Shown: positions 3,196-50,905 of the stretch, piece after piece
Layout of the letters: each line of letters begins with the position of its first letter
Numbering within the stretch: position 1 is the first letter of the stretch
Assembly (NCBI RefSeq): GCF_965641715.1
Contig: NZ_OZ282453.1
Reading direction: 5' to 3' (one strand)
Length of the DNA: 64,000 nucleotides
Origin: Escherichia coli
GTDB taxonomy: Bacteria > Pseudomonadota > Gammaproteobacteria > Enterobacterales > Enterobacteriaceae
The notes under the pieces: model-generated
The model's database searches: none
What the model was told of the DNA's origin: nothing
What the model saw: the letters and a program-made list of their open reading frames with translations, nothing else
Program-made: the position numbers and the translations under genes

Positions 3196-3714
3196 TCATT
3201 GGTTCCACGGCATCTTATCTAACAACCTTGCCATCCCACAAAAACCGCTAATTCCTGCAAACAGTAACCCGGCACCAACAAAGCCGCTTAATAAGAAGAA
3301 ACCGCTATTTACGGTATAACCCAGTATAACGCCGATTAATATTAAACCACCCGCAGCGATCTGCACCTGGCGCATTAACGGCAAGGGTTGAGATTTATTT
3401 ACCGCTACTGGCAATCCTGCTTTTTTCCAGCCATCAATCCCATCTTCGAGTAAAAAGATTTCTGCGGGGGCGGCAATCGCTGCTAATTTATCGGCGTTAT
3501 TACTGGTGCGTTTACCTGCCTGGCAGTGGAATATAATTTGCTCGTGACGTAATTTAGCCGGAAGACCTGACTGTTCCAGCACGGATAATGGAGCCAGATC
3601 TGCTTCAGGAATATGTTCACGAAGATATTCATCAGCATCACGAATATCGATTAACTTTGCGCCGCGTGCGATTAATTCTTGTGCATCATGCGGCGAAATG
3701 GTTGTCAAAGCCAT
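3196..3714 (-). CDS. ygaP: YgaP membrane-anchored rhodanese (thiosulfate sulfurtransferase)
   Basis: 172 aa ORF with rhodanese active-site region [12 protein letters not shown] and two C-terminal TM helices. Confidence 0.9.
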
Positions 3715-7130: not shown

Positions 7131-7480
7131 TGTCGGATGCGGCGTAAACGCCTTATCCGACCTGGATCCCCGTAGGCCGGACAAGACGCAAAGCGTCGCC
7201 TCCGGCATGGATGCGCCGAATGTCGGATGCGGCGTAAACGCCTTATCCGATCTACATTTCCGTAGGCCGGACAAGACGCGTAAGCGTCGCCTCCGGCATG
7301 GTGCGCCGAATGTCGGATGCGGCGTAAACGCCTTATCCGACCTGAATCCCCGTAGGCCGGACAAGACGCGTAAGCGTCGCCTCCGGCATGGTGCGCCGAT
7401 TGTCGGATGCGGCGTTAACGCCTTATCCGACCTACACTCTCGTAGGCCGGACAAGACGCGCAGCGTCGCCTCCGGCATGG
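7131..7480. repeat. REP/BIME array: four tandem pairs of repetitive extragenic palindromes in alternating orientation
   Basis: Units TGTCGGATGCGGCGTAAACGCCTTATCCGACC and CGTAGGCCGGACAAGACGC...AGCGTCGCCTCCGGCATGG each recur four times with about 95-nt periodicity between gabP and gabT. Confidence 0.9.
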
Positions 7481-7488
7481 GGGCGGTG

Positions 7489-8769
7489 CTACTGCTTCGC
7501 CTCAGCAAAACACTGGCCGATGATCTCCAGACCCTGACGAATCTGAGCATCTTCAATTGTGAGCGGTACAAGGATGCGCAGCACGTTGTAATACGGGCCG
7601 CAGGAGAGAAGAATCAGGCCCTTATCGCGGGCGCGCGCCACGATCTCGGCGGTGAGTTTGGCGTTCGGTTTACTGTGATCGCCGTCTTCAAACAGCTCGA
7701 TGGCGATCATCGCCCCCAGCCCGCGTACGTCGCCGATCTCGGTGTGTTTTTCGGCGATCGCCAGCAATCCGTCTTTCAACTTCTGCCCCAGATCGTTGGC
7801 TTTTTGCAGCAGATTTTCCTGCTCAAACACCTTCAACACTTCCAGCGCAGCCACGCAGGCAATCGGGTTACCCGCATAGGTGCCGCCCAGCCCGCCTGGA
7901 GCGACGGCATCCATCACTTCGGCGCGCCCGGTGACGCCCGCCAGCGGGAAACCGCCTGCGATCGATTTCGCAAAGGTGGTGAGATCCGGTGCCACGCCCA
8001 TTTGCTCCATCGCAAACAGCGTGCCGGTACGCCCCGCGCCGCTCTGCACTTCATCGGCAATCAGCATGATCCCGTGCTCGTCACACAGCGCGCGTAAACG
8101 CTGCATAAACGCAGGCGTCGCGGCGTAGAAACCGCCTTCGCCCTGAACCGGCTCAATCACGATGGCGGCGATATCTTCCGGCGCGGCGTCATTTTTGAAG
8201 ATCCGGTGGATGCTGGCGATAGCGTCATCTTCACTGATGCCGTGCAGCGGGCAAGGATAAAGCGCGCGATAAACGTGCCCTGGCATCAGGCCCATGCCCG
8301 CAGAGTACGGATTCACCTTGCCGGTCAGCGCCAGCGTGTAGTGCGTGCGCCCGTGATACGCGCCGCTAAAAGCGATGGTGCCGCTACGTTTGGTGGCAGC
8401 GCGGGCGATTTTCACCGCGTTTTCCACCGCTTCGGAACCCGTGGTGACCAGCAGCGTTTTCTTGGCAAAATCGCCCGGCACCTTCTGATTCATAATCTCG
8501 CACAGCTCCAGATACGGCTCGTAAGCCAGCACTTGGAAGCAGGTGTGCGACAATTTTTTCAACTGCGCTTCCACCGCCGCAACCACTTTCGGATGCAGGT
8601 GCCCGGTATTGAGCACCGCAATGCCGCCCGCGAAATCAAGATACTCACGGCCTTCAACGTCCCACACCCGGCAGTTTTCCGCGCGATCAGCGAAAATGGG
8701 GTGAATTTGCCCAACGCCACGAGGAACTGCCTGACTGCGGCGCTGCATTAACTCTTTATTGCTGCTCAT
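7489..8769 (-). CDS. gabT: GabT 4-aminobutyrate aminotransferase (PLP-dependent)
   Basis: 426 aa ORF MSSNKELMQRRSQAVPRGVGQIHPIFADRAENCRVWDVEGREYLDFAGGIAVLNTGHLHPKVVAAVEAQL... Confidence 0.97.
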   Translation of the reverse strand: MSSNKELMQRRSQAVPRGVGQIHPIFADRAENCRVWDVEGREYLDFAGGIAVLNTGHLHPKVVAAVEAQLKKLSHTCFQVLAYEPYLELCEIMNQKVPGDFAKKTLLVTTGSEAVENAVKIARAATKRSGTIAFSGAYHGRTHYTLALTGKVNPYSAGMGLMPGHVYRALYPCPLHGISEDDAIASIHRIFKNDAAPEDIAAIVIEPVQGEGGFYAATPAFMQRLRALCDEHGIMLIADEVQSGAGRTGTLFAMEQMGVAPDLTTFAKSIAGGFPLAGVTGRAEVMDAVAPGGLGGTYAGNPIACVAALEVLKVFEQENLLQKANDLGQKLKDGLLAIAEKHTEIGDVRGLGAMIAIELFEDGDHSKPNAKLTAEIVARARDKGLILLSCGPYYNVLRILVPLTIEDAQIRQGLEIIGQCFAEAKQ

Positions 8770-8782
8770 TCGCGTTCTCCAG

Positions 8783-10231
8783 TTAAAGACCGATGCACAT
8801 ATATTTGATTTCTAAGTAATCTTCGATGCCATACTTCGAACCTTCACGACCCAGACCCGAGGCTTTAATGCCGCCGAACGGGGCCACTTCATTGGAAATA
8901 ATCCCGGTATTGATGCCGACGATGCCGTACTCCAGCGCCTCGCCCACGCGGAAGACGCGACTTAAATCACGGGCGTAGAAATAGGCGGCAAGGCCAAACT
9001 CGGTGTCATTGGCCTGCGCGATCACATCGGCTTCATCTTTAAAACGGAACAGCGGGGCGAGGGGGCCGAACGTCTCTTCTTTCGACACTTTGGCGTTGGC
9101 TGGAACGTCCACCAGAATGGTCGGCTGGAAGAAGTTACCGCCGCGTTCGTGTGCTTTACCACCGCAAACTACGCGCGCGCCTTTTTCCAGCGCATCGGCA
9201 ATATGCTCTTCCACTTTTGCTACCGCTTTTTCATCGATCAGCGGCCCGATGGTGACGCCTTTATCCAGCCCGTCGCCGATATGCAGTTTGCTCACCGCCT
9301 GCTGCAATTTTTCGGCAAAGCGGTCATACACGCCGTCCTGCACGTATAAACGGTTGGCGCAGACGCAGGTTTGCCCGGCGTTGCGGAATTTCGAGGCCAG
9401 TGCGCCTTCCACGGCTTTATCGAGATCGGCATCGTCAAAGACGATAAACGGCGCGTTGCCGCCCAGCTCCAGCGACACTTTTTTGATGTCTTTCGCGCAC
9501 TGTTCCATTAACTGGCGGCCAATTTCGGTCGAACCGGTAAACGACAGTTTGCGTACCAGCGGGTTGCTGGTCAGTTCGTCACCCACCGCGCCCGCCGAAC
9601 CGGTGACCACGTTAAACACGCCAGCCGGAATGCCCGCGCGGATCGCCAGCTCCGCCAGCGCCAGCGCAGAGAACGGCGTCTGACTGGCGGGCTTCAGTAC
9701 CATGGTGCAGCCTGCCGCCAGCGCCGGGCCGGCTTTACGGGTAATCATCGCCGCCGGGAAGTTCCACGGCGTGATAGCCGCGGTAACGCCAATCGGCTGC
9801 TTGATCACAATCAGGCGCTTATCGGCCTGATGACCGGGAATGGTGTCGCCATAAATGCGTTTGCCTTCTTCGGCAAACCACTCAATAAAAGAGGCGGCGT
9901 AGCTGATTTCGCCTTTGGCTTCAGCCAGCGGTTTACCCTGTTCGAGGGTCATCAGGCGCGCTAAATCGTCCTGATGCTCCATCATCAAATTGAACCAGTT
10001 GCGCAGAATGTTGGCGCGTTCTTTGGCGGTGAGCGCGCGCCATGCGGGCAGGGCGCGGTTGGCGGCGTCGATAGCGGCGCGGGTTTCATCTGCGCCCATT
10101 TTCGGCACGCTACCCAGCTTGTCGCCGTTCGCCGGATTGGTGACGTCGATGACTTCACCATTGTTGGCGTCCAGCCATTCCCCGTTAATCAACGCCTGTT
10201 GGCGGAATAAGTTGCTGTCGTTCAGTTTCAT
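8783..10231 (-). CDS. gabD: GabD NADP-dependent succinate-semialdehyde dehydrogenase
   Basis: 482 aa ORF MKLNDSNLFRQQALINGEWLDANNGEVIDVTNPANGDKLG... with aldehyde-dehydrogenase catalytic region. Confidence 0.97.
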   Translation of the reverse strand: MKLNDSNLFRQQALINGEWLDANNGEVIDVTNPANGDKLGSVPKMGADETRAAIDAANRALPAWRALTAKERANILRNWFNLMMEHQDDLARLMTLEQGKPLAEAKGEISYAASFIEWFAEEGKRIYGDTIPGHQADKRLIVIKQPIGVTAAITPWNFPAAMITRKAGPALAAGCTMVLKPASQTPFSALALAELAIRAGIPAGVFNVVTGSAGAVGDELTSNPLVRKLSFTGSTEIGRQLMEQCAKDIKKVSLELGGNAPFIVFDDADLDKAVEGALASKFRNAGQTCVCANRLYVQDGVYDRFAEKLQQAVSKLHIGDGLDKGVTIGPLIDEKAVAKVEEHIADALEKGARVVCGGKAHERGGNFFQPTILVDVPANAKVSKEETFGPLAPLFRFKDEADVIAQANDTEFGLAAYFYARDLSRVFRVGEALEYGIVGINTGIISNEVAPFGGIKASGLGREGSKYGIEDYLEIKYMCIGL

Positions 10232-23538: not shown

Positions 23539-23901
23539 TGGTGGAGCTGGCGGGAGTTGAACCCGCGTCCGAAATTCCTACATCCTCGGTACTACATGCT
23601 TAGTCAGTCTTTACATTCGCTTGCCAGCTGCGGACGGACACGCCACTAACAAACTAGCCTGATTAAGTTTTAACGCTTCAACCCCAGGCAGGGCTTCCAC
23701 GCGATCTCTTTTGGGTTTGACCTCTCTTGATCCCCGTCCTAAGAGCGGAGGCTAGGGAGAGAGGGCTCTAAGCAGGTTATTAAGCTGCTAAAGCGTAGTT
23801 TTCGTCGTTTGCGACTATTTTTTGCGGCTTTTTACGAGGCCAACCGCCCCTCGGCATGCACCTTGGGTTTCGCAAATCCCGTCGAATCCAGAATCAGCCC
23901 C
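23539..23901 (-). ncRNA. ssrA: tmRNA (SsrA), 363 nt
   Basis: Reverse complement matches the recalled E. coli tmRNA from 5' GGGGCUGAUUCUGGAUUCGACGGG... through the tag-encoding region to the 3' ...GGUUCAACUCCCGCCAGCUCCACCA. Confidence 0.97.
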
Positions 23902-41638: not shown

Positions 41639-41661
41639 AGTGTTGCCTTTTTGTTATCAAT

Positions 41662-41688
41662 AAAAAAGGCCCCCCGATTTGGGAGGCC
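41662..41688 (-). terminator. pheA attenuator terminator
   Basis: Minus-strand hairpin GGCCTCCC-AAATC-GGGGGGCC followed by TTTTTT, between pheL and pheA. Confidence 0.85.
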
Positions 41689-41736
41689 TTATTGTTCGTC
41701 TTCGCATTCTGTTTCATACGACGAAACGCCTCCCAT

Positions 41737-41784
41737 TCAGGGGAAGGTAAAAAAGAATGCGAAGAAAAACGGTGTGTGTTTCAT
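41737..41784 (-). CDS. pheL: pheA leader peptide (Phe-rich), 15 aa
   Basis: Manual translation of the minus strand gives MKHTPFFFAFFFTFP-stop with seven Phe codons, classic attenuation leader. Confidence 0.9.
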   Translation of the reverse strand: MKHTPFFFAFFFTFP

Positions 41785-41840
41785 GTTTGTTTCCTTAAGT
41801 GACTTTAGTACAGTACCCGTACTGTTTTCACGCTGTCAAC

Positions 41841-41951: not shown

Positions 41952-42974
41952 TTATGTGGATGAAATGTGGATGCCTCCTTTTAACGGATTAAGTGAAATT
42001 GCATCCTGGAGGAAATCAGGAGCGAGGTGCGCATAGGTCATAGTTTGCTGGATCGTGGCGTGCCCCATAATTCGCTGGAGCGTAAGTATATTTCCTCCAT
42101 TAATCATAAAGTGAGCTGCAAAGGTATGGCGTAGAACATGTACTGCCTGCCCTTTTGGTAGATCAGGTTTAACACTGCGAAGCACCTTGCGATATTCCTC
42201 ATAATTGACGTCAAACAAAAGGCCGGATTTCTTTGTTTTGATCTCGCTAACAACTTCATCAGAGACAGGAATAATTCGAACTTTTCCGTTTTTAGTTTTG
42301 TTAAACGTCACGCGGTTATTGATGATGTGTTCCGCGCGCAGATTTTTCGCTTCTCCCCATCTCGCACCAGTACTGAGACAAAGTAGCGTAATCCGCCGGG
42401 CATCACCGCTTACTGCATCCAGTAATTTGGCAATTTCTTCCGTGGTGAGATACGTCATTTCGGGTGATTTTCGTTTCAAAGAGGGGAGGGCGCGGAGCGG
42501 ATTTTCTCCGTGAAATTCCCCGGCATTTGCCAGGAGTGTAAACATTCCTCCGAGATCCGACTCATCACGCCGAACAGTAGACTCTTTTACTCCCAAAGAT
42601 AAACGGGAGCTTCGATAAGCGGCCATGAAACGAGCATTAATCTGGCTAACCCTTGGATCATTCATTTCTTTGATGATTTTTTTCAACCTGGTTAGAACGC
42701 CGTTAGCATATGGCTTATTGCGTCCACCCAATTCCCACCATAACGGAAGCAGATCTGAGAGATGACGTTGCTCTGTTGGCTTTTCAAGCCATTCCTTATC
42801 GTGCATGTGGCTGAGAACATAACGCTCAAAGGCCACTGCATCTGCCTTTTTCTTAAAAATCCGCTGAATCCGACGTCCACTTCGGCCACGCGGTCTAACA
42901 TCCACTTTATACCGTCCACCATCGAGTGCTTTAATTGCCATTGGCAAGCCCTCCGGTGAAACGAGGAAAGACAT
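41952..42974 (-). CDS. int: P2-type tyrosine integrase
   Basis: 340 aa ORF; ...RLKAEHIINNRVTFNKTKNGKVRIIPVSDEV...HVLRHTFAAHFMINGGNILTLQRIMGHATIQQTMTYAHLAPDFLQDAISLNPL closely resembles P2 Int as recalled (catalytic R...HxxR...Y). Confidence 0.93.
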   Translation of the reverse strand: MSFLVSPEGLPMAIKALDGGRYKVDVRPRGRSGRRIQRIFKKKADAVAFERYVLSHMHDKEWLEKPTEQRHLSDLLPLWWELGGRNKPYANGVLTRLKKIIKEMNDPRVSQINARFMAAYRSSRLSLGVKESTVRRDESDLGGMFTLLANAGEFHGENPLRALPSLKRKSPEMTYLTTEEIAKLLDAVSGDARRITLLCLSTGARWGEAKNLRAEHIINNRVTFNKTKNGKVRIIPVSDEVVSEIKTKKSGLLFDVNYEEYRKVLRSVKPDLPKGQAVHVLRHTFAAHFMINGGNILTLQRIMGHATIQQTMTYAHLAPDFLQDAISLNPLKGGIHISST

Positions 42975-43007: not shown

Positions 43008-43310
43008 TTAACCAATTTTCCTTTCGGATGGGGGTAAATCCGTTGGTTCTTGCCCATAGTGTGCGAGAGCCGGAGCTATCTGCCCGGATTCAGGCGCAAT
43101 TTTTCCAGTCATAAACCACAACGCATATTTCTCAAATCTGGGGTTGTTTAGTATTTGCTCAATTACTTCAGCATTAGGGATAGTTTTACCGCTTTCATAT
43201 CTCCACAGAGCATCACGGTTTAAACCAAGCATTTTTGCTGTATCCGGGAGGCTAGTAAGTCTCTCGCTTTCACGCATGATTTTTATGCGCTCTCCAATAG
43301 TCATACGCAT
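43008..43310 (-). CDS. P2 C-type immunity repressor
   Basis: ORF 43008-43325 (start ambiguous among three in-frame ATGs); ...YALWFMTGKIAPESGQIAPALAHYGQEPT... matches the recalled P2 C repressor C-terminal region. Confidence 0.85.
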   Translation of the reverse strand: MRMTIGERIKIMRESERLTSLPDTAKMLGLNRDALWRYESGKTIPNAEVIEQILNNPRFEKYALWFMTGKIAPESGQIAPALAHYGQEPTDLPPSERKIG

Positions 43311-43405
43311 GTTGCAATTCTCCAACGTCTGTATTAATGTTTATACAAATGAGTTTGATTTGGGGCATCCGTCGCAAGAAATACCCCAAACAGGGAGATT
43401 ATCAC

Positions 43406-43732
43406 ATGAATGAAGAACTATTGAGGGCATTGTTTAAGATCCCAGACCCCATCACCGTCGATGAGTTTTCCCGCCGCACAGGTAAGACCGAATCAGCCGT
43501 AAGAAAGTTGGTAGAGCGTCGACTCATCCCTCTAACTACTGAGCGCGAGGTTTTAGGCGAGGAAGGGAGTTCGCGCCGTCTTCTCATCCTTTGGAATGAG
43601 TGGCTCGAAATGGTCTATGACGCAACGAAACAGCTTCCTCCTGAGCGTAAAGATTGGCGCAATCACTGGCTGAAGAAAGCCAAGAAGCTGGCGGAAGATT
43701 TGGGATTAGGTTTTCTTAATTTTGCTGCATGA
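43406..43732 (+). CDS. cox: Cox-like excisionase / transcriptional switch protein
   Basis: Divergent from the repressor gene; GGGAG RBS; HTH-like segment DEFSRRTGKTESAVRKLVERRLIPL resembles P2 Cox. Confidence 0.7.
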   Translation: MNEELLRALFKIPDPITVDEFSRRTGKTESAVRKLVERRLIPLTTEREVLGEEGSSRRLLILWNEWLEMVYDATKQLPPERKDWRNHWLKKAKKLAEDLGLGFLNFAA

Positions 43733-43750
43733 GATGCAGGGAGTTTTGAT

Positions 43751-44092
43751 ATGAAACAGCAACGTAATTCACGCTTTCGTAATGGCGCTGAACGCCACGC
43801 TAACCGTTTCGCTACCAGCGCATCACGCAGCAACATCCGCTACAGCCTGAGTGATACACACGCAACGCCGGATGGCTACCCAGTAAAACAAATCGGCGAG
43901 CATGCCTGGCTGATTGAAAAAGCTGGAATCGTGGTCCACAAATGCCCACGCAATCCGTTTACCGGAAACCGCATTTTTGCATTGAGCTGCGGCGACAATC
44001 AGTTCGGGCAGGATTTCACATTGTACGAAGCGCTACGCACGGTTGATCGTCTGCTCCGCGGACAAAGTTTTATTAAACAGGCTGATTTATAA
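43751..44092 (+). CDS. Hypothetical prophage early protein (113 aa)
   Basis: ORF with GGGAG RBS in the early operon; no recognisable motif. Confidence 0.55.
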   Translation: MKQQRNSRFRNGAERHANRFATSASRSNIRYSLSDTHATPDGYPVKQIGEHAWLIEKAGIVVHKCPRNPFTGNRIFALSCGDNQFGQDFTLYEALRTVDRLLRGQSFIKQADL

Positions 44093-44102
44093 CAGGTGCT
44101 TT

Positions 44103-44390
44103 ATGACCAAAGACCATGCACAAGGTGTATTTATCCGTTTTATTGATTTTCGCGGTGAACTGTTATTACGCGCATCCGCTATTGATGGAGTGGCTCCGGC
44201 GGGTAAAAACGGAGCCGACGAAGCCACTTACGTTTATCTGAACGGCACGCGACTGCTTGTGGAACTTCCGTACCAGACCGTACGAGAAATCATTAGCAAA
44301 GCTGAAAAAGCGCGCCAGGCTAATGGCAATGAACCCTATATCGAAATTATTTGCATGGATTCAGAAGCTGAAATCCAGAAAGCAGATTAA
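44103..44390 (+). CDS. Hypothetical prophage early protein (95 aa)
   Basis: ORF 44043-44390 with internal start MTKDHAQGVFIRFIDFRGELLLRASAIDG...; co-directional early operon. Confidence 0.5.
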   Translation: MTKDHAQGVFIRFIDFRGELLLRASAIDGVAPAGKNGADEATYVYLNGTRLLVELPYQTVREIISKAEKARQANGNEPYIEIICMDSEAEIQKAD

Positions 44391-44401
44391 AGGGCGTTGC
44401 G

Positions 44402-44644
44402 ATGGGCAAAGAATATAAAACTCTCATTAACAAAGCACTTGAGCGTTTCTATTTTCGCTTAAGTGCATCAGGCGCTCATGCTGAACGTGCTGCCCGTGAC
44501 TCATTGACCAGGGCAATCCGGAGTCTGTATGACGTGGCTTTTTACGCTGATGATCTGGATGCACCTAACGAACTTTCCGAGCTGATCTGTGCCGCAGAAT
44601 GCGGGGAACATATTGAACCGTATAAGCTGGGGAATATCGCATGA
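44402..44644 (+). CDS. Hypothetical prophage early protein (80 aa)
   Basis: ORF in early operon, tightly packed with neighbours. Confidence 0.5.
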   Translation: MGKEYKTLINKALERFYFRLSASGAHAERAARDSLTRAIRSLYDVAFYADDLDAPNELSELICAAECGEHIEPYKLGNIA

Positions 44645-44754
44645 GTATATTTATCTCATGGCTTGTTCTGATTATTTCGGTGGTCTGCGCCATTGGGATT
44701 ATGCGAATTATTAATTCAGTGAAAAAGATCGAGCGTTTTTTCTCTGATGAATAA
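44641..44754 (+). CDS. Possible small hydrophobic protein (37 aa)
   Basis: Manual translation MSIFISWLVLIISVVCAIGIMRIINSVKKIERFFSDE; ATG overlaps the previous stop; single predicted TM helix; below ORF-track cut-off. Confidence 0.35.
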   Translation: MSIFISWLVLIISVVCAIGIMRIINSVKKIERFFSDE

Positions 44755-44846
44755 CGATACAAATAAAACATCAAATTAAATAAGAAAACGTGAAAACCAT
44801 CCGTATTAACGGAGGTATTCGCACACGTAAATAATGGAGATATAAA

Positions 44847-45263
44847 ATGAACGCAAAAGAAGAAGGCATTATCGACACATTAAAAAAAATATCAGAAGCG
44901 GAAGATGAAATGGCTAAAGATGACGTGAAGCGTAGCCAACATATGGCAGCACTTCACGCACTGACCATCGCAAAAATCACCGCTGACGCAGCCAAAATTA
45001 TTGAGGAACAGGGCAAAGAAATCGACACTCTTAAAACACAGTCAACAGTTGCAGCCATGAATCCGTCCAGCATTGGACGCCGCATTTACATTCTTGGTTC
45101 GGCAATAATGACGCAATACACCATTATTGCCGAACTGCACGGCAAATACCTGATAACGCCTTACCACACAAAAGAGTCAGAGCTTCTGACAAATCTCCGC
45201 CTGATAGAACGCTCTCAAGCTGTATTCATTGATGACGCGCAACGTGCCGTATTTAACGCATAG
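44847..45263 (+). CDS. Hypothetical prophage early protein (138 aa)
   Basis: ORF with RBS; no recognisable motif. Confidence 0.55.
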   Translation: MNAKEEGIIDTLKKISEAEDEMAKDDVKRSQHMAALHALTIAKITADAAKIIEEQGKEIDTLKTQSTVAAMNPSSIGRRIYILGSAIMTQYTIIAELHGKYLITPYHTKESELLTNLRLIERSQAVFIDDAQRAVFNA

Positions 45264-45286
45264 GGTTACTGGACAAAGGGGGCGCA

Positions 45287-45490
45287 ATGGCAATTAAGCA
45301 TTTTCCCGTCGTTCGCTTTACCTCCAGAGGGCGCGAATACGAGGTCGACGAACGCCTGATTACCACTATCGACAAACATCGTTCGGAAAAGGATGCACAC
45401 CACATCTACCTCACTGACGGCACTTACTTCTGCGCCACCAACGTGGCGCGGGTGAATCTTATCCGACAGGTACAGGAGCCACACAGATGA
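45287..45490 (+). CDS. Hypothetical prophage early protein (67 aa)
   Basis: ORF with AAGGGGG RBS; stop overlaps next start (ATGA). Confidence 0.5.
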   Translation: MAIKHFPVVRFTSRGREYEVDERLITTIDKHRSEKDAHHIYLTDGTYFCATNVARVNLIRQVQEPHR

Positions 45491-45753
45491 CCATTCTGGA
45501 CTACATCGCTACTCATCCGGGGTGTAGCGGCGGAGAGATCGCCGCAGCACTGAATACTCCAACCACAGCCATTAATGCTGAGTTACGCCAACTTTGGCGC
45601 GGCGGCTTAGTCATCAGAACAAACCGCAGCACAGGTGGTCGCGCTCGCAAAACTGGAGGCCAGGCTTCTTACCACGTAAACCCGATGCCGTTCGGGTGTA
45701 GCAATCCACTTACTCACATGTTTAACCAGCTACTGAAGGAAGCCAGAGCATGA
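45487..45753 (+). CDS. Small winged-helix-like DNA-binding protein (88 aa)
   Basis: MTILDYIATHPGCSGGEIAAALNTPTTAINAELRQLWRGGLVIRT... resembles a winged-helix recognition unit; translationally coupled to neighbours. Confidence 0.55.
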   Translation: MTILDYIATHPGCSGGEIAAALNTPTTAINAELRQLWRGGLVIRTNRSTGGRARKTGGQASYHVNPMPFGCSNPLTHMFNQLLKEARA

Positions 45754-46049
45754 GCACCATCAACCACCAGAAGCTACGCGAACTGGCATTTGCCCTGCAA
45801 CGAATGGCAACGCCTCAAAAATTACTGGCATTTCGCGCAATGCTCTCGCCGTCTGCTGTGCTGGCATTGCTGGATGAGCTGGAGCACGCCAGAACCACGG
45901 CTCCTGCCATTCGCCTGACGCTCCATCATGAAATCGCTGATTTCTGCGCGACATTGGAGGCGCCAGGCGAACCGGAAACGCCGGAAGCAATACAGCAAGA
46001 GCCGCTGCAACGCATTGACAAGGTTTTTGATTTTTTTCTGAACCAGTAA
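45750..46049 (+). CDS. Hypothetical prophage early protein (99 aa)
   Basis: ORF translationally coupled to upstream gene. Confidence 0.5.
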   Translation: MSTINHQKLRELAFALQRMATPQKLLAFRAMLSPSAVLALLDELEHARTTAPAIRLTLHHEIADFCATLEAPGEPETPEAIQQEPLQRIDKVFDFFLNQ

Positions 46050-46371
46050 GAAACCAGAGCATGCACACACAAAAAAACCGCTTGCCATGCCGCAATCAGT
46101 CAGGTTACATTTTCGCTGCACCTCATAAAACGGGTGCCGGGTTTCGCAGCCTGCTGACAACCAAAGCGCACAACCGCGCCAGCGGTTTTTTTGTGCGTAC
46201 TGTATTGCCACGTTTTTTTCGCGTCAGAATTATGGCGGGGCGTACGGGGCCGACTTCGGTCGGGCCGGGTTCTTTGGTTGCCGGTACTGCGAACCCCGTA
46301 CGTCTCGCCACCCACAGTTTCGCAGCTCTGGATGGTGAGTTTTCAAAACTTACAACCAAAGAGGCCACACC

Positions 46372-46602
46372 ATGGCAAACCGCAAACAGCACCGCGCTAT
46401 CGCGGAGCGTCGTCACATCCAGACTGAAATCAACCGCAGACTTTCCCGCGCATTCCGCGTCGCTAAAATCATGCACATCAATATGCTGCATGAGCGTAGC
46501 TGCGAACTTTCAAACCTCTACTCATCCGCTGTTTTCAGCTATCTGGCGGATGATCTGCGCGAGCTTCAACAGCTCATCCAGCAGCAAAACAAACTCCATT
46601 AA
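46372..46602 (+). CDS. Hypothetical prophage early protein (76 aa)
   Basis: ORF with AGAGG RBS; protein-like composition, unlike the overlapping 205-aa ORF in another frame. Confidence 0.5.
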   Translation: MANRKQHRAIAERRHIQTEINRRLSRAFRVAKIMHINMLHERSCELSNLYSSAVFSYLADDLRELQQLIQQQNKLH

Positions 46603-46674
46603 TTCCTGTTCCGGGCCTTTCCTGCACCTTGCGGCGGGAGGCCTTCGCACATCTGTAACAAGAGGATTGCCGCA

Positions 46675-47040
46675 ATGATTCTCGCCAACGACTTTCTTGA
46701 ATACCTGCTCAACACAGAGCGTGATCTTGCCGCTCGCGTACGTGATCGTTATGACATGTATCTGAAATCCCTGCCTGTACCGCAGCTCGCTGACGGAAAG
46801 ATTGTTATTGATGGTCGCTACATGATTGACAGCCACGAGGGAAATTACAGGCTTTACCGCATTGAAGGTGGCACCCCGTCCGTTATTGGCATTTACCAGC
46901 GCCCATCCTCTGCAATCGTCGATGTGATTGCCGACAGCATCCGCATCACACATCGCCATGCCGACACAGAAGACACCGTGCTGGAAATTCAGCGGCTGGC
47001 TGCCGTCTGCCGCGACACCCTGAATGGCATGACGAAGTAA
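46675..47040 (+). CDS. Hypothetical prophage early protein (121 aa), immediately upstream of replication gene A
   Basis: ORF with GAGGA RBS; occupies the position of P2 early/replication accessory genes. Confidence 0.55.
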   Translation: MILANDFLEYLLNTERDLAARVRDRYDMYLKSLPVPQLADGKIVIDGRYMIDSHEGNYRLYRIEGGTPSVIGIYQRPSSAIVDVIADSIRITHRHADTEDTVLEIQRLAAVCRDTLNGMTK

Positions 47041-47046
47041 ATCACT

Positions 47047-49869
47047 ATGACGGCAGAGTACATCAGGGACTGGCAACAACCGCGCCACGCAGTGGGACGT
47101 GAAGGAACGGGGATCCCCGTTCCTGAATCCGCGCTTTCCTCCTGGCTGGATGCCTACCGGGCAGAGAACGAGCGCCGCCAGGAAATGGCTGATGCGGCGT
47201 TCTCCGCCACGCCGCTGGGCAACCTGATTAATAAAAGCCTGGATGCACAGGAAAAACAGGACAAAACCATCACACTGGCAGGAGACGCCAGAAAACAGGT
47301 ACGCGGTGCGGTGGATGAAGCCATGGCCTCGCTGCGCCTGCTGCCGTCCTATCTGCGCGATCCGCTTATTCGCCACCTCTCCTTCCTGCGCAAAAAACAG
47401 GAAGCCGATCGCCGGAAAGGCAAAAAGAGCTGGCAGGCTGAACGCTACGCGCGCGGAACCCTGCGCAAAATATTCGAACGTCTGGACCGCACCGACCACC
47501 GCTGGCTGACACCGGGTTATCGCTCCCTTGCCGGACGCGAACGCCTGGATGATTTGCTTTACCTGCCGCAGCTCAACAAGCACCAGATACAGACGCTGGC
47601 CACCATGACGGCGGCGATGTTCAGCAGCACCTTCGAAAAACTCTGCGATGGCTTTGGCGCGACTGATGGCGAGCTGACCATGGATGTAACGCTGAAGGCG
47701 TATCAGATGCTGGCCCGCATGGCGTTACACCTGCACGCCATGCCTCCGCATTATGATGCACTGACAACAGACAAAGACCGGAGGAACGAACCGGACACGG
47801 AGCTGCTGCCGGGCGCAATCCTTCGCCTGACCTGTGCGGAATGGTGGAAACGCAAACTGTGGCTGTTACGTTGCGAGTGGCGGGAAGAACAACTCCGCGC
47901 CGCCTGTCTGGTTTCCAGAAAAACATCGCCCTATCTGAGCCAGGACGCGTTAAGCGAGTTTCGCGCACAGCGCGAGAAAACACGCGATTTCCTGAAAAGT
48001 TTCATGCTGGAAAACGAAGACGGGTTCACGATTGATCTCGAGACGGTGTATTACGCGGGAGTAAGTAACCCGGTTCATCGTAAGGCAGAAATGATGGCCA
48101 CCATGAAGGGGCTGGAACTTCTGGCCGAAGCCCGTGGCGACAAAGCGGTGTTTCTGACTGTCACCTGCCCGTCAAAATACCACGCCACAACAGAGAACGG
48201 TCATCCGAATCCCAAATGGAACGGGGCCACCATGCGCGACTCCAGCGATTACCTGGTTAACACGTTTTTTGCGGCGGTCCGCAAGAAACTGAACCGCGAC
48301 GGCCTGCGCTGGTATGGCATCCGCACGGTGGAGCCTCACCATGACGGCACCGTGCACTGGCATATGATGGTCTTTGCTCATCCGGAAGAAATCGACACCA
48401 TTGTGTCCCACACCCGCGATATTGCCATTCAGGAAGATCGTCACGAGCTGGGTGATGATATTACCCCACGCTTTAAGGCGGAGTACGTCGACGGCTCAAA
48501 AGGCACACCGACCAGCTACATCGCCACCTACATCGGGAAAAACCTGGACAGCCGTGCCGTGGATGGCATCGACCCGAAAACGGGCAAGCCACGCGTTGAC
48601 CACGAAACCGGAAAATCAATGGCCGAGAGCGTGGAACGCGCCATCGGCTGGGCGCGCCTTCATCGGGTCCGCCAGTTCCAGTTCTTTGGCATCCCCTCCC
48701 GTCAGGTGTGGCGTGAACTGCGCCGCCTTGCCAGCCAGATGGCTCGCAACCCGGAAGGACCGCAACGGCTGAAGGATGACGCAATGGACGCGGTTCTTGC
48801 TGCCGCTGATGCCGGATGTTTTGCCACCTACATAGAGAAACAGGGCGGCGTACTTGTTCCACGCAAGGACTACCTGATTCGCACCGCCTACGACCTCGCA
48901 GATGAGCTGAACGATTACGGTGAACAGAGCGTACAGATTTACGGGATCTGGTCACCGCTCATCGGGGAGTCTTCCCGCGTATGCACGCATCCGGACAACT
49001 GGAAGCTGGTAAGACGCAAACCGGAAGCGGAAGACAGCGCCCGCGAAAATGGTTTTGACCTTCAGGGCGGCCCTGCCGCCCCTTGGACTCGTGGCAATAA
49101 CTGTCCCCGTGTACAGGAAACAGGCAACAGCGGGACAGAACAGTCGAAAGAACGGCCAGCACCGTGGCCGCAGCTTCCTGACGGCGTTGACGTGAACGAA
49201 TGGATGCGCTCACTGAAACGGCACGAACGCCGGGCGCTGATGCGTTCGCTTCGTGACAAACAGGCAAAAAACAGCAGTGATGAAATGCAGAGCTGGACAC
49301 AGAGCCGCAAACAGCCACGGCCTTTGCCTGATAACCACGAATTACTCGCTAAAGAATGGCGGGAGTCTGCTGAATCTCTCGGCCTGCATATCGGTGAACA
49401 ACAGATGCAGCACCTGTTACGGGGCGGCAGTCTGTACGTTGACGGCAGCATCATTGCACCGCAGGGATTTGAAATTGTACGCAAACCGGATACCCGCCCG
49501 GACAGCCGAATCACGCAGCTCTGGCAGCGCCTGAGCCGTAATCATGGCGTAAGCAGCACGGAGATCCGCCATAACCCGGTCGCCAGCTATCTGGCACAGC
49601 TGGGGGCATCAGACCCTGAAGCCGCCGCACGCCTGGCATCCACACTTCAGCAGGACCAGAACACCATGAAAACACCCGTTACCGTGCTTTCTGACATGCT
49701 GCGCGCCATCCGCGACGCAGAGCACGCACAGAGAATCAGTGAAACCACTGAACGCGCCAGCCGCAAAGCAGACCTGCTGCGGGGTGGCCTGACCAGTGGA
49801 AACAAAAAACAGACAGAAACGGGATTCACAAATCCCATAAATGAGCAAAAAACGTGCCGCGATATATGA
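47047..49869 (+). CDS. P2 gpA-like rolling-circle replication initiator endonuclease (940 aa)
   Basis: HUH-type motif region ...GIRTVEPHHDGTVHWHMMVFAHPEE...; position after the early ORFs matches P2 gene A; unusually long C-terminal region. Confidence 0.85.
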   Translation: MTAEYIRDWQQPRHAVGREGTGIPVPESALSSWLDAYRAENERRQEMADAAFSATPLGNLINKSLDAQEKQDKTITLAGDARKQVRGAVDEAMASLRLLPSYLRDPLIRHLSFLRKKQEADRRKGKKSWQAERYARGTLRKIFERLDRTDHRWLTPGYRSLAGRERLDDLLYLPQLNKHQIQTLATMTAAMFSSTFEKLCDGFGATDGELTMDVTLKAYQMLARMALHLHAMPPHYDALTTDKDRRNEPDTELLPGAILRLTCAEWWKRKLWLLRCEWREEQLRAACLVSRKTSPYLSQDALSEFRAQREKTRDFLKSFMLENEDGFTIDLETVYYAGVSNPVHRKAEMMATMKGLELLAEARGDKAVFLTVTCPSKYHATTENGHPNPKWNGATMRDSSDYLVNTFFAAVRKKLNRDGLRWYGIRTVEPHHDGTVHWHMMVFAHPEEIDTIVSHTRDIAIQEDRHELGDDITPRFKAEYVDGSKGTPTSYIATYIGKNLDSRAVDGIDPKTGKPRVDHETGKSMAESVERAIGWARLHRVRQFQFFGIPSRQVWRELRRLASQMARNPEGPQRLKDDAMDAVLAAADAGCFATYIEKQGGVLVPRKDYLIRTAYDLADELNDYGEQSVQIYGIWSPLIGESSRVCTHPDNWKLVRRKPEAEDSARENGFDLQGGPAAPWTRGNNCPRVQETGNSGTEQSKERPAPWPQLPDGVDVNEWMRSLKRHERRALMRSLRDKQAKNSSDEMQSWTQSRKQPRPLPDNHELLAKEWRESAESLGLHIGEQQMQHLLRGGSLYVDGSIIAPQGFEIVRKPDTRPDSRITQLWQRLSRNHGVSSTEIRHNPVASYLAQLGASDPEAAARLASTLQQDQNTMKTPVTVLSDMLRAIRDAEHAQRISETTERASRKADLLRGGLTSGNKKQTETGFTNPINEQKTCRDI

Positions 49870-49945: not shown

Positions 49946-50905
49946 ATGAAAATTTGTATCGACGACGGCTCCACCAACATCAAGCTGGCATGGACTGAGA
50001 ACGGCGAACGCCGCAACGCCATCAGCCCGAACAGCTTCAAGTCGGAATGGTCTGCGCCGTTCGGTGGCTCGCAGCCCGCGAACTACATGCTTGATGGCGT
50101 GCGCTATGGTTTTGATCCGGTCAGCGATCGCTTTGTCCAGACGACCGACACGCAATACCAGTACAGCGATGTGAATGTCATTGCCATTCATCACGCGCTG
50201 GTCAAATCAGGCATCACGCCACAGGAGGTGGATGTGGTTGTCACCCTGCCATTGAGCGAGTATTTCGACACAAACGCACAGCCGGACATGGCCAACATCA
50301 GCCGCAAAAAAGCGAACGTTATGCGCCCGGTGGAGTACCAGAACGGCGAAACATTCACTATCCGTAACGTACGGGTTATGCCTGAATCCATTCCGGCTGG
50401 CTTTAAAGCACTGGCTGACATGAGTCCGCTTGAATCCCTGCTGATTGTGGATTTGGGCGGAACCACACTGGATGTGGCAAAGGTTCAGGGGCAACTGGCA
50501 GGTATCAGCCAGGTGTTTTGCGATCCACACGTAGGCGTTTCCCTGATGGCCGATGCCGTACTGTCGGTGATGGCCACTAACGGTATGCGTATCAGTCACC
50601 ACATCGCCAATACCATTATCGAACATCGCCATGATGAAGCCTGGTTGCGCCAGCACATCCACAATGACGCGCATTACGCCAGCCTGATGGCGGTTATTCG
50701 TGAAAAGGAAGAAACACTGAAACAACGCGTGATCCGCGCGCTGGCGGTTTTTTCGGGTTACGGGCGGGTGATGGTTGTCGGTGGCGGGGCGGAGATTGTG
50801 GCACCCGCTATCCGCGAAGCCTGCGGAGTTAATGCGACTTTCATCGCGGACGGGGTGCCACAGTTTGCTCTGGTTAATGGGCTGTACGCAATGGACAAGG
50901 AGTAA
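49946..50905 (+). CDS. ParM/StbA-like actin-fold ATPase (319 aa)
   Basis: N-terminus MKICIDDGSTNIKLAWTE...ISPNSFKSEW...YQYSDVNVIAIHHALVKSGI...LIVDLGGTTLDVA... matches the recalled plasmid R1 ParM phosphate-1/connect/phosphate-2 motifs; strong RBS. Confidence 0.8.
   Translation: MKICIDDGSTNIKLAWTENGERRNAISPNSFKSEWSAPFGGSQPANYMLDGVRYGFDPVSDRFVQTTDTQYQYSDVNVIAIHHALVKSGITPQEVDVVVTLPLSEYFDTNAQPDMANISRKKANVMRPVEYQNGETFTIRNVRVMPESIPAGFKALADMSPLESLLIVDLGGTTLDVAKVQGQLAGISQVFCDPHVGVSLMADAVLSVMATNGMRISHHIANTIIEHRHDEAWLRQHIHNDAHYASLMAVIREKEETLKQRVIRALAVFSGYGRVMVVGGGAEIVAPAIREACGVNATFIADGVPQFALVNGLYAMDKE

Follow-up and report, generated by a model that had tools for sequence, protein, structure and literature searches.

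A gap in the early operon of a P88-like Escherichia coli prophage matches the c4/IsrK antisense-RNA immunity cassettes of P1 and P4

We analysed a stretch of 64,000 nucleotides of the Escherichia coli chromosome (contig NZ_OZ282453.1), referred to here as the window, and in particular a gap at positions 46050-46371 in the early operon of a prophage. The prophage is P88-like (Xuanwuvirus, P2 family), and the gap almost certainly holds a c4/IsrK cassette for antisense-RNA immunity, of the kind known from P1 (c4) and P4 (CI). The first-pass annotation had singled it out as the only sizable gap in a packed operon, and the map of open reading frames (ORFs) agrees: the early operon runs back-to-back on the plus strand from 43337 to 49869, and since its remaining gaps measure 92 nt (44755-44846) and 72 nt (46603-46674), this is the sole one above 100 nt. 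That both hairpins noted in the gap belong to one known cassette with paired targets, and that the downstream gene is the probable regulated target, had been missed.

The core of the cassette is a c4/CI-type antisense RNA gene, which matches the Rfam C4 family (RF01695) over model positions 1-87 with a score of 87.1 bits (cut-off 45, E 1.5e-16). The minimum-energy fold of 46228-46315 is identical to the family fold (-49.8 kcal/mol, z -3.9), with a long closing stem around two hairpins. The first of these internal hairpins is the GC hairpin CCGAC-TTCG-GTCGG reported earlier (CCGACTTCGGTCGG at 46250-46263), and the earlier suggestion of a small RNA in the gap is thus borne out. For comparison, we fetched 80 viral contigs, each encoding a protein at least 88% identical to the 76-amino-acid (aa) product of the gene that follows the gap. 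The gap is present in all 80 at 87-100% identity, and the set comprises 81 related, near-identical loci with 43 unique sequences. Across these, the c4 stems (helices 4-6) are 100% paired, with four pairs showing compensatory changes. Alignment to the annotated 77-nt c4 of P1 matches its ends to the AAUUAU leader and the GCCACC 3' end, from which we predict a mature c4 RNA of ~79 nt at ~46234-46312. The closing stem is followed by C-CCA (46311-46314), a tRNA-like discriminator-plus-CCA 3' end in which position 46314 is A in only 25 of the 43 unique relatives; such an end would fit recognition by RNase P. A scan of the gap for tRNA and transfer-messenger RNA (tmRNA) genes returned none.

Upstream of c4 lies a leader RNA of the IsrK/seqA type, which matches the full Rfam isrK model (RF01394, positions 1-77) with 65.9 bits (cut-off 50, E 1.3e-12); this match and that to C4 were reproduced when the whole window was scanned. 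The leader ends in an intrinsic terminator, the hairpin with a run of seven T residues that the first-pass annotation had described (ACCGCGCCAGCGGTTTTTTTG at 46173-46193; stem 46172-46177/46182-46187, T residues 46186-46192) and rightly proposed as an internal terminator. Its stem is unchanged in the relatives and aligns with the terminator part of the isrK model. A predicted sigma-70 promoter precedes the leader, matching the consensus at 9 of 12 hexamer positions in a promoter scan. Both hexamers are invariant among the 43 unique relatives and the spacer between them is variable. The -10 hexamer ends 7 nt before the first hairpin, both in the window, where the isrK model also starts at this point, and at the annotated P1 promoter P1c4. 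The predicted transcription start is at ~46118. A second promoter-like site, at 46205-46233, was considered and rejected; its -35 varies (T27/C16 at 46206), and its -10 coincides with the AAUUAU leader conserved before c4.

The c4 RNA presents two recognition elements, b' in the loop of its second hairpin and a' in the adjacent single strand, each exactly complementary to one site in the leader (b1 and a1) and one in the mRNA 3' of c4 (b2 and a2). Complementarity extends over 9-10 nt for b' and 7 nt for a', and the a1/a2 and b1/b2 pairs were the sole repeats found in the gap. Substitutions among the 43 unique sequences cluster in exactly six places, namely a1, b1, b', a', a2 and b2, with allele counts that match across sites (C29/G10/T4 at both 46145 and 46321, and G29/C10/A4 at 46291). 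The 81 loci carry about five a types and about twelve b types in 18 combinations, other natural site types including CTACACAAG and TTGGAAC. In all 18 combinations, both a1 and a2 are the reverse complement of a', and both b1 and b2 that of b', when G-U pairs are allowed.

Tested as alignment columns, the a1-a' and b1-b' pairings form standard pairs in 608 of 608 cells, compared with 27-52% for slid controls. Eleven of their 16 pairs change on both sides (4/7 for a1-a' and 7/9 for b1-b'), with up to five pair types at a position, and the covariation score of 0.667 (0.123 when shuffled) was reached by none of 500 shuffles. On the 3' side, a'-a2 (helix 8) is 100% paired with compensatory changes in 4/7 pairs, and b'-b2 (helix 7) is 96.6% paired with compensatory changes in 6/10. 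Taken together, the c4 stems, the leader hairpins and the a'-a2 and b'-b2 helices are 96.9% paired and hold 160 double-change cells, against 44 in shuffled alignments. The check proposed at first pass, fold covariation across homologous prophages, is therefore positive for the c4 stems and for the site pairings alike. A looser search with a c4 pattern returned mostly chance matches, from which 16 true c4 loci were retained; these more distant loci, most of them P4-like with kil-like ORFs downstream, follow the same site rule. Such three-way covariation argues strongly, on evolutionary grounds, for pairing of c4 with both sets of sites and for these sites as the carriers of specificity. Analogous site-set specificity underlies the heteroimmunity of P1 and P7, which is set by a' and b', and that of P4 and phiR73. 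Nineteen viral contigs carry the exact a'/b' type of the window; context was read for three newly found contigs and one control, all four of them P88-like, and most of the others were already among the P88-like loci.

Table 1. Coordinates of the cassette and of neighbouring prophage genes in the window.
Feature	Position	Strand	Description
c4/CI-type antisense RNA gene	46228-46315	+	Rfam RF01695 C4
b' recognition loop of c4	46271-46280	+	TCTTTGGTTG; loop of second hairpin
a' recognition segment of c4	46287-46293	+	CTGCGAA; single-stranded, adjacent to b' hairpin
Target a2	46319-46325	+	TTCGCAG; mRNA just 3' of c4
Target b2	46353-46362	+	CAACCAAAGA; overlaps Shine-Dalgarno AAGAGG (46359-46364) of epsilon-like gene
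Internal sigma-70 promoter (predicted)	46082-46111	+	-35 TTGCCA 46082-46087, 18-nt spacer, -10 TACATT 46106-46111
IsrK/seqA-type leader RNA	46118-46192	+	Two hairpins, single-stranded linker, intrinsic terminator
Site a1	46143-46149	+	TTCGCAG; exact complement of c4 a'
Site b1	46158-46166	+	CAACCAAAG; exact complement of c4 b'
Intrinsic terminator of leader	46172-46192	+	Stem AACCGC/GCGGTT, loop GCCA, seven T; terminator scan
Eta-like ('Ash') frame	46061-46678	+	205 aa; stop overlaps ATG of next gene (ATGA 46675-46678)
Epsilon-like protein gene	46372-46602	+	76 aa; homologue of P4 epsilon (helper derepression / anti-repressor)
121-aa ORF	46675-47040	+	From ORF list
Replication endonuclease gene A	47047-49869	+	940 aa; Pfam Phage_GPA, 438 bits
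Integrase	41952-42974	-	Prophage gene
Helix-turn-helix repressor (C repressor)	43008-43325	-	Prophage gene
Cox-family protein	43337-43732	+	Prophage gene

The first gene after c4 encodes the 76-aa protein, which resembles epsilon of P4. The product matches Pfam PF25738 (Derepression) with 29.5 bits (cut-off 27), a family in which P4 epsilon reaches 170 bits. Aligned pairwise with P4 epsilon, it shows 29% identity over 66 aa (E 1e-8), and RefSeq names it 'derepression protein'. NCBIfam gave no family for the 76-aa, 121-aa, 99-aa or 205-aa products, and the 121-aa ORF showed no similarity to P4 ORF151. Among relatives, the epsilon-like protein varies in its central third and is conserved at both ends. 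At three loci (among L001, L002, L093 and L105), this variation tracks the type of C repressor: where C is identical, the epsilon-like proteins are 98.7% identical, and where C is at 39% they are 89% identical. This hints that the epsilon-like protein targets the phage's own repressor, although three loci are far too few.

A 205-aa frame begins 5' of the internal promoter and spans the RNA cassette and, out of frame, the entire epsilon-like gene. The first-pass annotation found no convincing ORF in the gap, which stands insofar as this frame has an odd composition and lacks a Shine-Dalgarno sequence, and fails insofar as it matches Pfam PF10554 (Phage_ASH) above the cut-off (30 bits against 26, residues 16-107; the corresponding P4 frame scores 82 bits) and is open in 40 of the 43 unique relatives. 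Its ATG is kept in frame at five different upstream junctions, 21 or 24 nt before the -35 hexamer. Save for one frameshifted sequence, the hypervariable sites place no stop in this frame, whereas each of the other frames acquires 7-8 kinds of stop from them. Over the epsilon-like gene (46372-46678), sequence inspection showed few stop-prone codon contexts, and openness there is therefore uninformative. The frame appears to correspond to eta of P4. In P4, Phage_ASH maps to a 214-aa ORF (8168-8812, minus strand) across the leader and CI RNA, not to epsilon; methionines at residues 16-18 (MMM, giving 197-199 aa) and at residue 150 (giving 65 aa) mark what we take to be eta and the nested kil. Forti et al. 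reportedly found in 1999 that translating eta from the upstream promoter PLL prevents immunity-dependent premature termination in P4. The corresponding frame across the cassette is also open in mEp460 and Shae_phiSM, as in P4; in P1, it is interrupted within the b' loop by a stop codon and lacks a start upstream. These patterns are suggestive of a role for the act of translation rather than for the protein, and the 205-aa product itself is probably irrelevant.

We consider it likely that the cassette works as follows, by analogy with its relatives. The internal promoter would fire independently of the repressed early promoter, and most of its transcripts would end at the T7 terminator as a short leader RNA. 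Transcripts that read through would be processed, probably by RNase P, to the ~79-nt c4 RNA, whose b' and a' would pair with b2 and a2 and so block ribosome binding to the epsilon-like anti-repressor gene. Through polarity, the same block would probably silence both the 121-aa ORF and gene A; that these two genes may be under such control is inferred from the synteny of cassette, anti-repressor and replication gene in P4, P1 and mEp460. The a1/b1 sites would form a second binding site, either aiding termination, as in the seqA model of P4, or titrating c4 as a decoy, as in the IsrK model of Gifsy-1. Transcripts from the early promoter would carry the eta-like start codon, and translating ribosomes would render them insensitive to c4. 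Insensitivity to c4 through translation has been described for P4 eta. The hypervariable a and b sites would set the specificity of immunity.

Several points weigh against this reading or temper it. The leader RNA folds no better than shuffled sequence (z -0.65), and the loop-target duplex energies, calculated on the single sequence, are matched or beaten by 36-66 of 1000 shuffled loops, which is marginal; with thermodynamics weak for leader and duplexes, covariation is the decisive evidence. The Rfam c4-a1b1 model stays below threshold here (19.6 bits against 46.7), because the first hairpin of the window is of the isrK type and the isrK model fits the leader better. The promoter is predicted from a 9-of-12 consensus match. 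The assignment of the 76-aa protein as an anti-repressor is weak, given 29% identity to P4 epsilon and a Pfam match just above the cut-off. Selection on the eta-like frame is suggestive at most, as the relatives are close and the copies of the sites are not independent. The sequence is compatible with translational block, termination or activation by the leader RNA as the dominant output.

The choice among these outputs separates two readings of the same cassette from the one we favour. In one, c4 acting on a1/b1 and a2/b2 of the nascent RNA mainly terminates transcription in the manner of P4, 5' of the epsilon-like gene, the 121-aa ORF and gene A, and translational block is secondary. The architecture is indeed nearest to that of P4, with an isrK-type leader scoring 65.9 bits here, 60.8 in P4 and 35.1 in P1, an epsilon homologue and a replication gene downstream, and an eta-like frame starting 5' of the promoter. 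On the other hand, the first gene after c4 has b2 lying on its Shine-Dalgarno sequence, which is the arrangement of P1 for translational repression, and the window has no kil-like nested gene and no recognisable Rho-dependent site. We hold this reading to be possible though the less likely one; the two outputs are not exclusive, since translational block causes polarity. In the other, which we rate slightly lower still and regard as doubtful, the key regulator is the short IsrK-like leader, activating in trans in the style of Gifsy-1: it would open the silent read-through mRNA, switch the anti-repressor on and lead to induction. The full-length isrK match with its promoter and terminator, the precedent of Gifsy-1 (PMC4825925) and the fact that a1/b1 are perfect mimics of a2/b2, as a decoy needs, all speak for it. 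Alone, it leaves the overlap of b2 with the ribosome-binding site unexplained, and being compatible with c4 as a titrated repressor it refines translational block by c4 rather than replacing it.

Two further readings deny the cassette altogether. That the conserved element is a protein gene ('Ash'/Eta, 205 aa), with the RNA-model matches incidental, draws on the Phage_ASH match above cut-off, the conserved ATG and the openness of the frame in 40/43 relatives. Protein constraint leaves the three-way covariation unexplained, and the variable codons encode radical amino-acid changes; the frame has no Shine-Dalgarno sequence, overlaps the entire epsilon-like gene out of frame and shows no BLASTP similarity to part of the P4 ORF, and P4 immunity is known to be RNA (PMC4825925). 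We consider this very improbable. We find it hardly credible that the gap is a plain spacer in which a GC hairpin happens to lie beside an unrelated intrinsic terminator or attenuator, or that it serves replication or packaging, a function the first-pass annotation had also suggested. A terminator-like hairpin is present and the gap does lie upstream of a replication gene, yet covariation is extensive and the gap matches two covariance models (E 1e-12 to 1e-16). Nothing was found in favour of a replication or packaging signal, and no origin or packaging feature was noted in the gap, where no dedicated iteron or AT-rich scan was run.

The comparison also bears on the Phage_ASH family itself. 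A BLASTP comparison of the 205-aa frame with the annotated 138-aa part of the P4 'cI' ORF (8168-8584) found no similarity, so that the two are connected only by the Pfam profile, which tracks the conserved RNA. What PF10554 (Phage_ASH) describes is the RNA cassette, isrK/seqA plus c4/CI, in conceptual translation (the P4 eta frame); the epsilon protein belongs to a different family, PF25738. PHROG families named 'transcriptional regulator' also match the 205-aa frame. In a survey of P4-like satellites (PMC8628076), 'epsilon' was scored by PF10554, a marker that therefore detects the RNA cassette. Any satellite detection that relies on PF10554 as a protein marker for epsilon needs to take account of this link between Phage_ASH and the RNA gene. 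Among the RefSeq and GenBank records examined, the gap is blank or noted as 'similar to ash family protein'.

The window comes from an enterobacterial chromosome, with tmRNA at 23539-23901 and the Phe leader (pheL) at 41660-41785 by Rfam and tRNA/tmRNA scans, and the P2-family prophage adjoins pheL. Its genes run from Cox through small early genes, the gap, the 76-aa and 121-aa ORFs to a 940-aa replication endonuclease of the P2 gpA type (Table 1). The nearest isolated phages are P88-like Xuanwuvirus, at 94-96% identity across 951 bp. The 951-bp stretch 45750-46700 is matched by 1399 of 5426 complete E. coli genomes (about a quarter), of which 955 cover at least 80% of it. The integrase gene lies ~170 bp from pheL, and the same junction occurs in E. 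coli OkiPb01715 (locus L001), which suggests a preferred integration site beside pheL. Directly 3' of gene A are a ParM-type plasmid segregation protein and a partition/stability protein (window 49946-50905 onward; 9196-10471 in L001, where RefSeq gives these names), an unusual cargo for an integrated P2-family phage. At the upstream edge of the cassette there is a mosaic junction (46050-46068), the homology of the relatives ending just upstream of 46061-46068. On its upstream side, the cassette is joined at its ATG to at least five distinct gene modules, one junction variant carrying a hairpin and T-run just 5', and the cassette and epsilon-like gene thus move as a unit. Elsewhere in the window, three tandem Rfam naRNA4 (CssrE) elements, nucleoid-associated RNAs derived from repetitive extragenic palindromic sequences, lie on the minus strand at 7175-7432 (60.5-77.1 bits).

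The cassette is explained rather than new in kind, as all of its components belong to families already described (Weinberg et al. 2010, PMC2864571; P1 and P4 genetics; Gifsy-1 IsrK). A literature search found nothing on c4, IsrK or epsilon in P88-like phages, and no description of the cassette in these or other P2-family phages. The result is mainly one of annotation: what looks like non-coding sequence, and is left blank or translated as 'Ash', 'Rha' or 'transcriptional regulator' in GenBank/RefSeq, turns out to be an RNA switch of a known kind. It also offers a regulatory model for P88-like prophages that is absent from the P88 paper, in which an antisense RNA of defined specificity would restrain the epsilon homologue and perhaps the replication gene as well. 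With their clean three-way covariation, these loci are well suited as natural material for studying RNA-RNA specificity and heteroimmunity.

More speculatively, and in our view improbable as a whole, these observations can be joined into a single picture. P2-family helpers would carry a second, RNA-based immunity layer whose two-site 'barcode' is under diversifying selection and reshuffled by recombination, with an eta-like overlap that lets early transcripts pass and with mutual control of helper and satellite. If this were true, the translated overlap would let early-promoter transcripts cross the RNA block to the replication gene. As helpers and P4-like satellites share the module of leader, c4/CI and epsilon, they could silence or derepress each other through matching RNA types. 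Among the 16 true c4 loci, a small sample, no full a+b type was common to P4-like and P88-like contexts, and cross-regulation between helper and satellite is accordingly speculation. Some a types are mutually reverse-complementary between elements, a' being GTGGAAA in some P88-like loci (L083-type) and TTTCCAC in mEp460 (L104) and in P4-like loci (L152, L170, L159 and L140). One a type, TTCTCAAC, is common to one P88-like and one kil-like context.

Of the known systems, P4 (locus L003, minus strand) shares the most parts with the window; its immunity region comprises PLE, seqA, the cI RNA with seqB, seqC, kil/eta and epsilon, followed by alpha. Promoter, isrK-type leader with terminator (8692-8615, 60.8 bits), C4-family RNA (the CI RNA, 8507-8420, 74.9 bits), second target, epsilon-family gene (epsilon, 8175-7888) and replication gene agree in order and strand, and in both elements a long frame that matches Phage_ASH runs from 5' of the promoter across the RNA gene. 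The element in the window differs in being a full P2-family prophage of the helper type with gpA rolling-circle replication, whereas P4 is a satellite with an alpha primase. It has no kil, its epsilon homologue comes first after c4, and its eta-like frame is out of frame with that homologue; the P4 specificities are GTGAGAA (a) and TTCACAGG (b). With no kil, gpA replication and a full P2-like prophage, the element would work like P4 immunity without being a P4-like satellite.

The immI region of P1 and P7 has the same six-site order (promoter, a1, b1, c4, a2, b2, followed by icd), the same c4 fold and AAUUAU before the mature 5' end, and the first gene downstream again has b2 on its ribosome-binding site. 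By the experimental annotation of P1 (coordinates of L084), P1c4 is at 3196-3224, a1 at 3256, b1 at 3270, the 77-nt c4 at 3344-3420, a2 at 3424, b2 at 3453 and icd at 3471. The spacings in the window and in P1 are 15 and 14 nt from a1 to b1, 75 and 74 from b1 to c4, and 19 and 18 from b2 to the ATG, and P1 too has a terminator hairpin between b1 and c4. P1 differs in having icd and ant1/2 downstream with no epsilon homologue, in a leader that at 35.1 bits falls below the isrK cut-off, and in being a free-standing operon under operator Oc4 (P51 promoters) rather than part of a longer operon.

In the lambdoid prophage Gifsy-1 of Salmonella, isrK-orf45(STnc1160)-anrP has been dissected experimentally, its authors noting the resemblance to P4 seqA and CI (Hershko-Shalev et al. 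2016, PMC4825925). There, activation of the anti-repressor downstream by IsrK exceeds 100-fold, and spontaneous induction requires IsrK (PMC4825925). Judged by its description, Gifsy-1 is alike in having an IsrK-family leader with its own promoter and leaky terminator, followed by a processed stable RNA and an anti-repressor gene. It differs in its anti-repressor family and in the model, in which a translated 45-codon ORF is the equivalent of c4 and IsrK is an activator.

In lambdoid mEp460 (SfV-like) and in Shiga toxin (Stx) phages, the cassette stands before Rha/Ant in the early right operon, between cro and the replication gene. The mEp460 locus (L104) has isrK at 1501-1577 (67 bits) and C4 at 1602-1689 (83.6 bits), and differs from the window in that a Rha-type anti-repressor is nested in frame in a long ORF, for which databases give one 383-aa protein. 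This 'regulatory protein Rha' coding sequence (1141-2292) carries the whole cassette as an N-terminal extension, and the start of Rha is likely the ATG at 1747, just 3' of b2 and the Shine-Dalgarno sequence. In records of Stx phages, an 'antirepressor', 'peptidase' or 'transcriptional regulator' is annotated over the cassette. In Citrobacter phage Shae_phiSM, the same RNA pair precedes an epsilon-like gene. The order of cassette, anti-repressor and replication gene recurs in P1, P4, mEp460 and Shae_phiSM.

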